From assembly GCA_049424145.1 (NCBI GenBank), contig JBMSSC010000002.1:1-53844 (forward strand): a stretch of DNA of 53,844 nt, in the 5' to 3' direction. Shown piece by piece: positions 27,217 to 32,131 of the stretch (its first letter is position 1; the number at the start of each line of letters is the position of its first letter). Made by a program: the position numbers and the translations under genes. The notes under the pieces were generated by a model that worked only from the letters and a program-made list of their open reading frames with translations, made no database searches and was not told the DNA's origin. This DNA is from Bdellovibrionia bacterium. GTDB lineage: Bacteria; Bdellovibrionota; UBA1018.

Positions 27217-27465
27217 ATGGGTCTGATGAGTCGTTTGCAACAGGTGGCACTCAATGAGTCGGGCTTTGCTTTTGATCCTCAGACCGGGGATTGTTACAAA
27301 CTCAATTCAACGGCATCTGAGATCGTTCAGCAATTCAAACAAGGGAAAGCTGTGGGGGAGGTTGCTCAGGCTTTAGCCTCTCAGTATGGAATCACAAAAA
27401 CACAGGCGCTTGAGGATATTCAAGATCTCCTCTTACAACTAAAAAATTTTGGGTTGCTGCGATGA
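27217..27465 (+). CDS. PqqD-like small protein (RiPP-recognition-element fold candidate)
   Basis: 82 aa. YKLNSTASEIVQQFKQGKAVGEVAQALASQYG...ALEDIQDLLLQLKNFGLL follows the PqqD-family pattern (xLNxtAxxIwxxxdGxxtvxeIxxxLxxxY...vxxDvxxFlxxLxxxGLl). GGAGG RBS is present. It lies 24 nt after the giant ORF. Confidence 0.65.
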   Translation: MGLMSRLQQVALNESGFAFDPQTGDCYKLNSTASEIVQQFKQGKAVGEVAQALASQYGITKTQALEDIQDLLLQLKNFGLLR

Positions 27466-28538
27466 AAAAGCTGAGTTTCAATAAACGGTTATCGGATCTG
27501 GTGATTGGGATTTCTGGCATCAATGCGACGGACAATCCTGGGCCCGGAGTTCCTGTGGCGCGAAGCTTAAAGGAGGGATCTCCCGATAGTCGGCTCGTTG
27601 GGCTCAGCTATGATCCTCATGATCCAGGAAATTATATGACGGAGCTTTTGAAGCACACCACCCGAATGCCCTTTCCATCCAAGGGGTGGAGTGAGGTTTT
27701 AAAAAAACTGCATGCTCTCAAGCAGCGCTTTGGTCTTAATATGCTGATTCCCTCCTTGGATGCAGAGCTTCCCCTCTTCATTGCTCATCAGAAGGAACTG
27801 AAAAAGATCGGGATCCAAACGCTTCTTCCCACCGAGGAACAGTTTTTGATTCGAGAAAAGAAGGTTTTGGCGGAAAACTGCTCTGCATGGGGGTTTTTAC
27901 ATCCCAAGACGTTTGTTGTTCATTCGGTTGATCAGCTCATTGATCTTCTTAAAGATGAGTCGATGTTTCCTTGCTACATCAAGGGGAATTACTACAAAGC
28001 TTACTTGGTTCACCATTTGTCGCAAGCCATTCTTCGCTTTACGGAGATTGCCGATGAGTGGGGGCTTCCGATCTTGGTTCAGAAACCCGTCCTGGGCAAG
28101 GAAGTGAATTTAGTTGGCTTGGGGGATGGAGCTGGCAACGCTTGTGGAATGATGGTGGCCAAGAAACTCACAACCACGAGTTTAGGAAAATTTTGGACGG
28201 GTGTTTCCATGAGTCACCCCAAGCTGCTGGAATTGGGAGAGCAGTTTGTTCAGCAGACGAAGTGGAGAGGTCCGTTTGAGTTAGAATGCATGGAGACTGA
28301 GTCGGGGATTGTCCTGATTGAAATCAATCCCCGGTTTCCAGCTTGGGTTTACTTTGCAACGGGGTGTGGTCTCAATCTCCCTCTGCGATTGGCTCAGTTG
28401 GTGACGTTTGGCGATTGCCCCACGCACTCCCAGTACGAGGTGGGAAAGCTTTTTGTCCGCTACACTTCAGAGATCGTAACGGACCTATCGATTTACTCAA
28501 GTCTAATGATGGACGGGGGTTGGAAAGATGCAGCGTAA
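27462..28538 (+). CDS. ATP-grasp family ligase (carboxylate-amine/peptide ligase type)
   Basis: The start overlaps the previous stop (ATGA). It has a pre-ATP-grasp-like N-terminus (LVIGISGINATDNPGPGVPVARSLKEG). It also has the central KG..YKA and LVQKPVLGKE segments and the C-terminal LIEINPRFPAW magnesium/ATP-site motif. Confidence 0.75.
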   Translation: MKKLSFNKRLSDLVIGISGINATDNPGPGVPVARSLKEGSPDSRLVGLSYDPHDPGNYMTELLKHTTRMPFPSKGWSEVLKKLHALKQRFGLNMLIPSLDAELPLFIAHQKELKKIGIQTLLPTEEQFLIREKKVLAENCSAWGFLHPKTFVVHSVDQLIDLLKDESMFPCYIKGNYYKAYLVHHLSQAILRFTEIADEWGLPILVQKPVLGKEVNLVGLGDGAGNACGMMVAKKLTTTSLGKFWTGVSMSHPKLLELGEQFVQQTKWRGPFELECMETESGIVLIEINPRFPAWVYFATGCGLNLPLRLAQLVTFGDCPTHSQYEVGKLFVRYTSEIVTDLSIYSSLMMDGGWKDAA

Positions 28539-29982: not shown

Positions 29983-29986
29983 TTCA

Positions 29987-32131
29987 ATGACTCCATTTCC
30001 TCAGGGGAGAAGGGTAGAAGCTCAGCTGTCCAAGCGAGCAGCTGAGTTTTTATCTCAAATCTGTTTAGGGTACTCCAACATTTTTTTTATCTCAAATCCA
30101 ATTTTTGGGGCAATGATTTTAGGGCTCTCTTTTTGCTCATTCTCAGTTGGTTTTCATGGGCTGATTGCAGAGCTCATGAGCTTCGTCTTTGTTACTTTTA
30201 ACCCAAAACGGACCCGGCCCACGGTTCGAGCCACTCCACCTTTTAATGCGATCTTATGCGGCAACTTTCTGGGCTTTTGGATGGATCCCAGCCTAAAAAG
30301 CGTGTTGTTCCTTTTGGCTCTGGGGTACACCAATTGGATCCTCCATCTCCTGGTGGATGCAATTTTAACTCCGCGAAAGCTCCCAGTGCTTTCTCTTCCG
30401 TTTTCGCTGACGTGCCTGACTTTTGCTCCCCTATTGGAGTGGAGCCTCGGTCCCAGAGTTTCACGCTCCCTTAGCGTTTGGCCTACTTTGGACGCCTGGA
30501 GCTCAGGGTCAATATTTTGGGATCAGGTTTTTCAATCCCTCGGAAGTGTGATTTTCTTACCCCTCAATTGGGTGGGGGCCTTCATTTTGGTCCTCCTGTT
30601 TCTGGAGTCGCGCGTGCTGTTTCTCGGGGTTCTCCTGAGTCTTTCTGCCTCCTGGGGCATTCATTCTGTTTTCTATCCCCCCTCTGCCTTAGGGTTTTGG
30701 AATTGGTCTCACTTTAATTTCGCTTTAATCGGAGCTTCAGTGGGGGGCTTTTTCTTCCTGCCCTCCGTCTTGACGCTCGGAATCTACTTGGCTTCCTTCT
30801 GGGGTGGTCTTCTTTCGTACTATGTGCTTTTGGTCCTGTTTCAGTATCATGTGGAGTGGATTCACTCGATCCCTCTTTGGTGTGGAAGTGCATTGGGGGT
30901 TTTTTTAGCGAAGCGACTTAAGCCCGAGGTAATGAACCTTAGTCTCGTTCGTCCAATGGAGAGGGCTTGGACTCAGCATCAGATTCGAAAGCGGCGCTTT
31001 GGAGAGGCTCTAGCCGTTGTTGACCTACCGCTCGGTAAGCCGTGTTCTATCCTACAAGGATTTAATGGGGATTGGACTCATCAAGGCCAATGGAAGCAGG
31101 CTCTGGATTTTGTGATTTTGGATGATCAGGGGAAGAGCCATCGGAACGCAGGAGAGAGGCCTGAGGATTACCATATCTATGGTCAGGACGTTCTTGCTCC
31201 CGTATCAGGCTGGGTGGTTAAGGCACACGACTTAGATGAGGACTCCTCCATTGCGCAAATCTCATTTCAAGACAATTGGGGGAATCATCTCCTCATTCGC
31301 TCGGAAATGGGGTTTTATGTTCTACTGGCCCATTTGAAGAAAGGTTCGCTTCGTGTTCAAGAGGGCAGCTTCGTGAAGGCTGCCGAAGTGCTGGCTCAAG
31401 TGGGAAACAGTGGTTATTCTCCTGAACCGCATCTTCATTTGCAGGTGGGTGAATCAGCTGACCTGAATCAGGGAACCATCGATTTTTCAATTCAATCCTA
31501 TTTAAAATCAGATGGTCAAGTTTGCTTCCATTCGGTTCCTGCCAAAGGGGATTCGGTGAGGCGTATTGTAGGAAACCAGACGCTTCAGTGGGCACTGAAT
31601 TTTCGGGCCTCCGATGAGTTGGAGTTTGAAACCGACCAGGGAACGCGAGCCACTCTTCGGTGTGGTTTGGATCCCCACTCAGGGCTTTGGTTCTTTGAGC
31701 AGCTGGGGGTTTCAGGTCGAGCCTACTTTTGGAAGGATGATCGCGAGTTTTATTTTTATGATTGGAAAAAAATAGATCCCGAGTCGTTCTTAAGCTTCTT
31801 TTCTCTTGCGCTCAGCCGTGTTCCCTTTGCCCTGAGTGATCAGGGCAGTGGGCCTCTGAGCTGGAAAGACTGGGTCCTGCGAAGTCGAGTTCCAGGGTTT
31901 CATCCCTTTTTATCGTTCAAGCAGAGTCTGGCCCACTTATTCCCCTTTTTTGATCCGAAGCCCATGGTGGAGTTTCAGTTTCAGATGAGCAGGGATGCCA
32001 CTTGGATTCGATCCCAGACCGATGGAGAAGAGGGAGTGCCGAGGCAGGATTTTCAAGTCAGGCTGGATCCCTGGACTGGCATCCTCTCGCTGGAAGTGGG
32101 CTCACAGATTTGGAGAAGAAAAAAGCCTTAA
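29987..32131 (+). CDS. Fusion protein: urea-transporter (UT)-like polytopic membrane domain + M23 (LytM-type) metallopeptidase domain + unknown ~200-aa C-terminal domain
   Basis: ATG 29987 lies 4 nt after the decarboxylase stop. The track ORF from 29843 would overlap by 140 nt.
- N-terminal ~330 aa: multi-TM, opening with AEFLSQICLGYSNIFFISNPIFGAMILGLSF, which resembles the UT family.
- Middle: ALDFVILDD...VLAPVSGWVV...NHLLIR...YVLLAHLKKGS...VGNSGYSPEPHLHLQV, an M23 signature with HxH.
- C-terminal ~200 aa: unrecognised. Confidence 0.7.
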   Translation: MTPFPQGRRVEAQLSKRAAEFLSQICLGYSNIFFISNPIFGAMILGLSFCSFSVGFHGLIAELMSFVFVTFNPKRTRPTVRATPPFNAILCGNFLGFWMDPSLKSVLFLLALGYTNWILHLLVDAILTPRKLPVLSLPFSLTCLTFAPLLEWSLGPRVSRSLSVWPTLDAWSSGSIFWDQVFQSLGSVIFLPLNWVGAFILVLLFLESRVLFLGVLLSLSASWGIHSVFYPPSALGFWNWSHFNFALIGASVGGFFFLPSVLTLGIYLASFWGGLLSYYVLLVLFQYHVEWIHSIPLWCGSALGVFLAKRLKPEVMNLSLVRPMERAWTQHQIRKRRFGEALAVVDLPLGKPCSILQGFNGDWTHQGQWKQALDFVILDDQGKSHRNAGERPEDYHIYGQDVLAPVSGWVVKAHDLDEDSSIAQISFQDNWGNHLLIRSEMGFYVLLAHLKKGSLRVQEGSFVKAAEVLAQVGNSGYSPEPHLHLQVGESADLNQGTIDFSIQSYLKSDGQVCFHSVPAKGDSVRRIVGNQTLQWALNFRASDELEFETDQGTRATLRCGLDPHSGLWFFEQLGVSGRAYFWKDDREFYFYDWKKIDPESFLSFFSLALSRVPFALSDQGSGPLSWKDWVLRSRVPGFHPFLSFKQSLAHLFPFFDPKPMVEFQFQMSRDATWIRSQTDGEEGVPRQDFQVRLDPWTGILSLEVGSQIWRRKKP

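Follow-up and report, generated by a model that had tools for sequence, protein, structure and literature searches.

A 53,844-nt stretch of contig JBMSSC010000002.1 from a Bdellovibrionia bacterium (the whole stretch is called the window below) carries, on its forward strand at 27217–32131, a cassette of four genes encoding a small PqqD-family protein, an ATP-grasp ligase, a pyridoxal-phosphate (PLP) decarboxylase, and a urea transporter (UT)-type channel fused to an M23 peptidase and a further C-terminal tail domain. We found that this cassette recurs in one and the same arrangement in unrelated bacteria, which cannot be chance. Its parts come from known families; the combination and its export device have no described counterpart. 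Our reading, offered tentatively, is that these four genes are the core of a module, six genes long in most genomes, that would make a small amide or amine, release it and export it across the cell envelope.

Conservation of the four-gene cassette

The first gene (27217–27465, +) encodes an 82-aa protein of the PqqD family, i.e., of the type that serves as recognition element (RRE) for peptides that are made by the ribosome and modified post-translationally (RiPPs); the gene caller placed its start at ATG 27226, which gives 79 aa instead of 82. As read from the DNA, this gene overlaps the ligase gene (27462–28538, +; 358 aa) by 4 nt in an ATGA, and the ligase gene overlaps the decarboxylase gene (28528–29982, +; 484 aa) by 11 nt. 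The open reading frame (ORF) of the UT-M23 protein, with its stop at 32131, has two candidate starts, TTG 29843 and ATG 29987; the latter is preferred because the alignments of homologues begin within its first 30 residues, and counted from this ATG the gap to the decarboxylase gene is +4 nt. The cassette genes are translationally coupled. Upstream, a 1491-aa ORF ends at 27192 and the PqqD gene begins 24 nt later, while downstream a convergent gene for a 427-aa protein (32128–33411, −) shares a 4-nt overlap of stop codons with the UT-M23 gene. All of these junctions had been claimed in the initial annotation of this DNA, and our reading bore them out. Promoter and terminator scans gave no signal beyond shuffled expectation, and a search for riboswitches and other RNAs in the window and four loci returned tRNAs only.

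The distribution of the cassette was examined by scanning one representative genome per GTDB species for relatives of the ligase. Such relatives were found in at least 561 species from more than 15 phyla, with sulfur-oxidising Gammaproteobacteria among the hosts, and 84 loci were fetched for comparison. Comparison by tblastn and ORF clustering showed that the ligase, decarboxylase and UT-M23 genes have identical order and strand in every fetched locus that is long enough, and the PqqD gene lies directly 5' of the ligase gene in 82 of 83 loci. The best 80 of the at least 561 species matches include Oligoflexia/Bdellovibrionota, Elusimicrobiota, Campylobacterota, Aquificota, Verrucomicrobiota, Planctomycetota, Cyanobacteriota, Thermodesulfobacteriota, Calditrichota, Ignavibacteria, Leptospirales, Magnetococcales, Chromatiaceae, Thiomargarita and others, and all of these hosts appear to be diderm. 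In precomputed Pfam data, the four genes also stand together in Nitratifractor salsuginis, one Magnetococcales genome and one metagenome contig. The proposal that the four genes form a system had named such a neighbourhood comparison as its test beforehand, and the co-occurrence in unrelated genomes was indeed found.

This conserved system does not correspond to anything described in the sources that we searched. In the June 2026 release of NCBIfam, none of the ligase, decarboxylase, UT-M23 and 427-aa proteins scores as high as the cutoff of any model, and openly searchable full text (the non-open literature lay outside the search) holds no paper on this gene combination. With no characterised pathway, curated hidden Markov model (HMM) or openly searchable paper matching the cassette, the earlier statement that no described pathway could be recognised holds. 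PADLOC defence models matched none of the cassette proteins, and identity as a defence system was dropped. A plasmid search returned one distant Streptomyces match of uninformative context, and the cassette is not plasmid-borne.

A 65.7-kb viral contig (IMGVR_UViG_3300047160_011268) with a phage-type DNA polymerase A carries the PqqD, ATP-grasp and decarboxylase genes at 3444–5922. This trio is translationally coupled, its ligase and decarboxylase share 33% and 46% identity with those of the window, and the decarboxylase motif GAYN.TQ.MQFI is retained; the UT-M23 gene is absent. No such trio was found among 50,697 GenBank phages, so isolated phages have no match. The retention of the trio without UT-M23 shows that the PqqD-like protein, ligase and decarboxylase are a self-sufficient cytoplasmic enzymatic unit.

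The two enzymes and the PqqD-like protein

Among the cassette proteins, the decarboxylase (alanine-racemase fold) gives the clearest indication of the chemistry. It matches Orn_Arg_deC_N (E 2.4e-32) and Orn_DAP_Arg_deC (E 5.6e-09) and has all the catalytic motifs, namely the PLP-binding Lys, HxHxGT, DLGGG, ExGR, the Cys-loop and GAYN. Its closest solved relative is the N-citrylornithine decarboxylase FigC/FslC (7kh2; E 1.5e-54, 188 bits); diaminopimelate decarboxylases (DAPDC) come second with at most 125 bits, and BtrK of butirosin biosynthesis reaches 73–75 bits. FigC, SbnH, AcsE, MccE, BtrK and DAPDC belong to one clade whose members work on conjugated amino acids instead of making polyamines (PMC7857480); its substrates include N-citryl-ornithine, N-citryl-diaminopropionate, O-citryl-serine, Glu-S-BtrI and a microcin C intermediate (PMC7857480). 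FigC carries a Met in place of the acidic residue that neighbours the catalytic Cys and binds a free side-chain amine (PMC7857480). The same replacement of Asp/Glu is found in the window decarboxylase, where a Met follows the catalytic Cys. On the other hand, the citrate-binding residues H357, R387 and N389 of FigC correspond to I, Q and M in the window protein, and these are nearly invariant as I/Q/M in its orthologues; the Arg with which DAPDC binds the distal carboxylate is not conserved. In 74 orthologues, the loop GPLCMNID is invariant save for three conservative substitutions at two positions, and the loops DAGVNLL[YF]T..WY and GAYN.TQ.MQFI are nearly invariant. The Met-for-acid swap and these nearly invariant substrate loops point to one conserved, side-chain-acylated substrate, perhaps an amino acid with an amide link from its side chain to a rather apolar partner other than citrate. 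The kinship with FigC/FslC and the common Met after the Cys strengthen the logic of ligation followed by decarboxylation that had been suggested from the sequence at the outset. In public databases, the family is labelled 'diaminopimelate decarboxylase-like'.

The ligase is an ATP-grasp carboxylate-amine ligase of an uncharacterised subfamily resembling carbamoyl-phosphate synthase (CPS) and PylC. Of the domain calls checked with HMMs, those for PqqD, decarboxylase, UT and M23 were confirmed, and for the ATP-grasp call there was only a sub-threshold match (22 bits) to PF15632 (ATPgrasp_Ter); the ligase also matches the CPS-like PRK12767 models. At E ≤ 1e-5, 4498 homologues were found; the top 120 show 48–62% identity except for one 207-aa fragment at 88%, and identity is 42–62% over the listed top matches and the fetched loci from different phyla. 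K174, E273/E275 and E287-x-N289-x-R291 are among its invariant residues. Of the solved structures, 2pn1 (a protein of unknown function), CPS and PylC come nearest, all of them as weak matches; PylC is a ligase that joins a carboxylate to the ε-amine of Lys. Homologues are publicly labelled 'carbamoyl-phosphate synthase large subunit'.

The 82-aa protein had been taken for a PqqD/RRE-type protein, and this assignment is supported by matches to PF05402 (E 1.2e-14) and TIGR04353 (PqqD_rel_X; 38.2 bits, cutoff 35) and by the strand region FxFDPxTGxS[YF]xLN, which is strongly conserved across 82 loci. Two lasso_PqqD (B1) models scored below threshold (45 and 22 bits against cutoffs of 70 and 80), and the C-terminus is variable and non-acidic. 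Thus one mark of a RiPP cluster, an RRE of PqqD-like fold, is present. A precursor gene in or beside the cluster is not: the window operon holds no precursor-like ORF of at least 60 aa, and ORF clustering at −2 to +1.5 kb around 83 cassettes revealed no conserved ORF of 12–75 aa, the short-ORF clusters near these cassettes being lineage-local DNA conservation only. Apparent N-terminal extensions of PqqD, considered as fused peptides, were rejected as ORF-calling artefacts. The absence of a visible precursor noted initially for this operon therefore extends to all 83 loci. The cassette also lacks the mark of HPr-rel-A systems, since no HprK-like gene recurs next to PqqD in these loci.

The channel-peptidase protein, accessory genes and surroundings

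The UT channel domain occupies residues ~1–320 (29987–30946, +; PF03253, E 1.5e-21) of the UT-M23 protein, whose AlphaFold2 model reached a pLDDT of 90 and a pTM of 0.86. In Foldseek comparisons, the domain superposes on the Desulfovibrio vulgaris UT (dvUT) with TM-scores of 0.76–0.80 (E 2e-10) at ~20% identity. The signature motifs FNxxLxG (twice) and LPxL[ST]xPF are retained, so both the fold and the duplicated motifs place the domain in the UT family. The gene is never beside urease in the loci examined, which argues for a solute other than urea. In a 2026 survey of UT evolution, M23 is named only in passing, among the partner domains newly noticed in bacteria (PMC12998343). The LytM-type zinc peptidase domain (residues ~340–502; 31004–31492, +; PF01551, E 5.7e-13) superposes on LytM, lysostaphin and EnvC domains in Foldseek over residues ~340–500, and 43 homologues all keep H365, D374, H449, H482 and H484, the first motif being H-x8-D and not HxxxD. 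The beta-rich tail (residues 503–714 plus stop; 31493–32131, +) occurs only in the UT-M23 architecture. Modelled alone, it reached a pLDDT of 91; its best fold match in the Protein Data Bank (PDB) had an E-value of 0.08 and a TM-score below 0.3, and no Pfam or PDB sequence match was found. A profile search of 1.8 billion representatives returned 869 proteins, in which the tail lies at ~residues 450–700 of the listed full-length (~700-aa) proteins, while the shorter matches look like fragments. Judging from the model, the tail is a new protein domain with a fold that has no known relative. Three homologues (P0133, P0146 and P0156) are publicly labelled 'urea transporter' or 'MepM/NlpD'.

The initial annotation had placed M23 processing at the envelope, and several observations point the other way. 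In solved UTs, the N- and C-termini are both cytoplasmic. The AlphaFold2 model has no transmembrane helix between UT and M23; four Lys/Arg residues lie in the N-terminal tail and nine in the linker after the UT domain, and a hand count over the modelled helix boundaries gave ~19 on the side of the termini compared with 2 on the opposite side. Furthermore, at least five independent clusters contain fusions of 1029–1085 aa that join UT-M23-tail to the downstream tetratricopeptide repeat (TPR)/barrel protein (e.g., L085 7103–10327, L067 5867–9124, and the proteins P0220, P0280, P0288 and P0317). At the junction of one such protein, P0123, the signal-peptide-like segment of the next gene is kept (…LLFLLLVGGLSASQVWA/KE…). 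A tail that is followed by an internal signal peptide must, for topological reasons, lie in the cytoplasm. The M23 and tail domains are accordingly predicted, from sequence and model, to lie in the cytoplasm beneath the channel.

The adjacent outer-membrane protein, which had been suspected of belonging with the four genes, is part of the cassette. The 427-aa protein of the window (32128–33411, −), with a signal peptide, an N-terminal TPR-like region and an outer-membrane beta-barrel-like part, aligns over its full length (29.5% identity) with the product of the co-directional downstream gene (14508–15689) in the closest metagenomic relative, L004, and the profile of the barrel region gave an E-value of 5.5e-72. 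A homologue follows UT-M23 co-directionally in 42 of the 54 loci with at least 2 kb of downstream sequence; the gene lies upstream of PqqD in Nitratifractor and is inverted in the window relative to its closest relatives. Members of the family have signal peptides, an alternating beta pattern and a C-terminal aromatic residue, and the long forms, that of the window included, bear the N-terminal TPR-like region. The family has no Pfam match, and its profile matched only TPR proteins in the PDB, confined to the TPR part. These features suggest that the product of this fifth gene is an outer-membrane beta-barrel with a core of ~260 aa.

Two additions to the initially described cassette emerged from the comparison: a sixth gene in most genomes and a two-component system in some lineages. 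A gene for a secreted protein of ~200 aa, whose TPR identity was confirmed, follows in 38 of the 54 loci; no separate copy was found anywhere in the 53.8-kb window. Genes for a histidine kinase and a response regulator of the OmpR type adjoin the cassette in ~13–17 loci (e.g., L019 15942–17655, L013 2553–4288 and L046 7292–9588), being downstream and translationally coupled in Sulfurimonadaceae, upstream in other Campylobacterota and divergent in cyanobacteria. No further gene family recurs beside the cassette in the loci compared. In L004, ferritin, Csp copper-storage, YHYH and SCO1/SenC genes flank the cassette (8728–9650 and 16635–18355); a link to metals is possible from this single locus.

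A functional tie to the giant kinase ORF upstream had also been suggested. The sole domain match of this 1491-aa ORF is a protein-kinase catalytic-loop segment at residues 1184–1251, with PADLOC matches to the mad6/PD-T4-6 kinases. No counterpart lies beside any other cassette, and the ORF sits in a stretch of 38–43% GC (compared with ~50% elsewhere in the window) behind a tRNA-Leu(caa) gene (21704–21790) and a (TATCCAC)n heptamer repeat (21794–21856). The missing counterparts and the low-GC stretch after a tRNA indicate that the adjacency is probably an accident of insertion, and the kinase was rejected as a component. The region 21704–27192 looks like an island inserted at the tRNA; no att repeats were found for it. 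Three other genes of the window are not conserved with the cassette: those for a sigma-54 activator (17791–19131) and an LdcA-like LD-carboxypeptidase (20443–21546, ~6 kb upstream), and a downstream 649-aa ORF without Pfam match (36460–38409).

A possible pathway, its alternatives and its meaning

In the pathway that we tentatively propose, the ATP-grasp ligase would amidate a carboxylate with the side-chain group of an amino acid, leaving the alpha-amino-acid end free, and the FigC-like decarboxylase would then strip the alpha-carboxylate to give a terminal primary amine (a product of the N-acyl-diamine or gamma-amide-amine type). Both steps would take place in the cytoplasm, where the PqqD-like protein may keep the partner in register for the two enzymes; this partner would most likely be a stretch of conserved peptide with its gene elsewhere in the genome, or part of a cassette protein. 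The catalytically intact M23 domain, on the cytoplasmic face of the channel together with the tail domain, might free the small finished amide, which could diffuse through the UT pore to the periplasm and be carried over the outer membrane by the secreted TPR protein and the dedicated beta-barrel. Thus, the PqqD-like protein, ligase, decarboxylase, M23 and tail would all be cytoplasmic, and the UT pore, TPR protein and barrel would form an outward route. In Campylobacterota and cyanobacteria, regulation or sensing of the process is probably the task of the neighbouring OmpR-type two-component system. The intact catalytic residues of the ligase and the presence of PylC among its weak relatives support this proposal. 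Moreover, the one fixed order in every fetched locus and the nearly invariant substrate loops argue for one conserved metabolite whose function is worth preserving. A more specific version, about which we are more doubtful, is a pan-bacterial (diderm) pathway on a reusable scaffold peptide, trans-encoded or intrinsic, with M23-UT as a 'cleave-and-release' exporter and an extracellular signal or metallophore as the product, sensed by the two-component system in some lineages.

Several points weigh against the proposed pathway. The scans around the cassettes, including that for conserved 12–75-aa ORFs, found neither a peptide nor a carrier; the stretch upstream of the PqqD gene is shorter than 100 nt in 32 of 77 loci, and in the window it measures 24 nt; a LysW-like acidic carrier tail on the PqqD-like protein was considered and dropped, its C-terminus not being acidic. 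The predicted topology draws on the positive-inside rule, the known topology of UTs and the fusions. To our knowledge, characterised M23 peptidases act on peptidoglycan outside the cytoplasm, and release within it would be unprecedented. UT pores are narrow and passive and would admit only products that are very small or linear. Finally, cyanobacterial and a few other loci have no barrel and TPR genes nearby.

The alternatives differ mainly in what the enzymes would act on. The cassette could be a true RiPP system with its precursor elsewhere, in which PqqD binds a leader, the ligase and decarboxylase add a C-terminal or side-chain amine to the core, M23 is the leader peptidase, and a modified peptide is the mature product. 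A discrete RRE with its best scores against lasso B1 and related chaperone models would fit this, the conserved groove of PqqD implies a conserved peptide ligand, and the set of an amide-forming ATP enzyme, a peptidase and export proteins recalls the logic of lasso peptides and of peptidase-containing ABC transporters (PCATs). We nevertheless consider it unlikely, given the lack of a cis precursor in 83 loci, the absence of an ABC or major facilitator superfamily (MFS) exporter from the cassette, a UT-type pore that, from what is generally known of its size, is too narrow for an ordinary peptide, and a cross-phylum enzyme identity of 42–62% with invariant substrate loops, which is unusual for RiPP tailoring enzymes. 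Cytoplasmic editing of muropeptides or wall precursors would have the decarboxylase act on peptide-linked meso-diaminopimelate (giving Lys) or another stem residue, the ATP-grasp enzyme add a residue as Ddl does, M23 trim stem peptides, and the channel and barrel move the fragments. The distal-carboxylate Arg of DAPDC is not conserved, neither LdcA nor other wall genes recur as neighbours, the phage-like contig has the trio without M23, and an RRE is, on general knowledge, not expected on D-amino-acid or gamma-linked stem peptides. These points make such editing improbable, even though DAPDC is the second-best relative of the decarboxylase (125 bits), the distal amine of peptide-linked diaminopimelate is acylated in keeping with the Met-for-acid swap, M23 enzymes cleave stem peptides, the hosts all seem to be diderm and the window has an LD-carboxypeptidase gene 6 kb upstream.

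Two further alternatives concern transport. Iterated ligation and decarboxylation in the manner of BtrJ/BtrK, which are known to show that the two reactions can alternate, could extend a primer into a linear polyamide without side chains; this chain would thread through the slot-like UT pore and be secreted by the TPR protein and barrel, and M23 would set its length or release it. The secreted TPR and predicted beta-barrel proteins recall AlgK/AlgE, PgaA, BcsC and PelB, and the inner-membrane protein is fused to the TPR-barrel protein in some genomes. Yet nothing in the data speaks for processivity, the barrel core has only ~260 aa, cyanobacterial loci have no TPR and barrel genes, and no such polymer is known in biology, so that we regard an exopolymer as very improbable. 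We give the least credence to uptake and salvage, in which the barrel, TPR protein and UT would import a small amide, a ureido compound or a short peptide for hydrolysis by M23 and conversion by the ligase and decarboxylase. UT channels are bidirectional, M23 is predicted to lie at the cytoplasmic mouth and the two-component system could sense a substrate; however, an ATP-grasp enzyme, an RRE and a clade-2 decarboxylase are hallmarks of biosynthesis, no conserved catabolic genes lie nearby, and the phage-like contig has the trio without any transporter.

Compared with known systems, the cassette resembles butirosin BtrI/BtrJ/BtrK in that an ATP-grasp enzyme adjoins an alanine-racemase-fold 'clade 2' decarboxylase, with a small helper protein alongside; BtrK acts on a tethered amino acid. 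Unlike in butirosin biosynthesis, the helper is a PqqD/RRE protein and not a phosphopantetheinyl acyl carrier protein (ACP), no PP-binding domain is found in the cassette proteins, and the channel-peptidase, barrel and TPR proteins have no place in that pathway. Butirosin is also a narrow actinobacterial/Bacillus secondary pathway, while the cassette spans more than 15 phyla. The close relationship to BtrIJK envisaged at first could not be upheld, given the missing ACP and the 73–75 bits for BtrK against 188 for FigC. With the rhizoferrin enzymes FslA/FigA and FslC/FigC, the cassette shares the ligate-then-decarboxylate logic and the Met after the catalytic Cys, and FslC/FigC is the closest solved relative of its decarboxylase; here, however, the ligase is an ATP-grasp enzyme and the cassette has no IucA/IucC-type synthetase of the NRPS-independent siderophore (NIS) kind, the FigC citrate residues H357, R387 and N389 are replaced by I, Q and M, and export would use the UT-M23 fusion and not an MFS protein such as FigB.

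Like RRE-dependent RiPP pathways (lasso B1/B2/C, PQQ PqqA-E), the cassette brings together a PqqD-family protein, an ATP-dependent amide-forming enzyme and a peptidase. In contrast to them, it has no adjacent precursor or scaffold gene, and its enzymes show far higher conservation between phyla than is usual for RiPP tailoring enzymes. In Pfam and NCBIfam scans of the cassette and its neighbours in several loci, neither a B2 transglutaminase nor an Asn-synthetase-like cyclase turned up, and no radical SAM or LanB-like enzyme did either. In a graspetide phylogenomics paper, PqqD is mentioned as an analogy only. In the scaffold-peptide pathways of the peptide aminoacyl-tRNA ligase (PEARL)/3-thiaglutamate type, a small product is built on a peptide and then cleaved off, an idea common to our model. 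That cleavage and export can be coupled is known from PCATs, in which a cytoplasmic peptidase is fused to a membrane exporter. The peptidase here differs from theirs in being an M23 zinc and not a C39 cysteine enzyme and in its C-terminal position followed by a novel domain, and a passive UT-fold channel takes the place of the ABC pump. The channel in turn differs from urea transporters (dvUT, UT-A/UT-B, SLC14) in that it is always fused to M23 and the tail and always within a ligase/decarboxylase cassette. In synthase-dependent secretion (AlgK/AlgE, PgaA, BcsC, PelB), a TPR protein and an outer-membrane barrel follow an inner-membrane component. The cassette has genes for a secreted TPR protein and a predicted barrel after the inner-membrane gene, and TPR-barrel fusions exist, but it contains no glycosyltransferase or synthase, and its predicted barrel is small (~260 aa) and has no Pfam model.

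Overall, the interpretation first placed on this DNA held for the conserved system, the RRE, the missing precursor and the tie to the barrel, and was not supported for the kinase, the envelope location of M23 and the close kinship with BtrIJK. If the proposed pathway is true, it would provide the first non-urea role for the UT fold and the first cytoplasmic, channel-tethered M23 peptidase, and would add a novel domain as well as an RRE protein that has no neighbouring precursor; each of these challenges present annotation rules. The labels 'urea transporter', 'diaminopimelate decarboxylase-like' and 'carbamoyl-phosphate synthase large subunit' that these proteins now carry can mislead metabolic reconstructions from metagenomes, including those of nitrogen metabolism.

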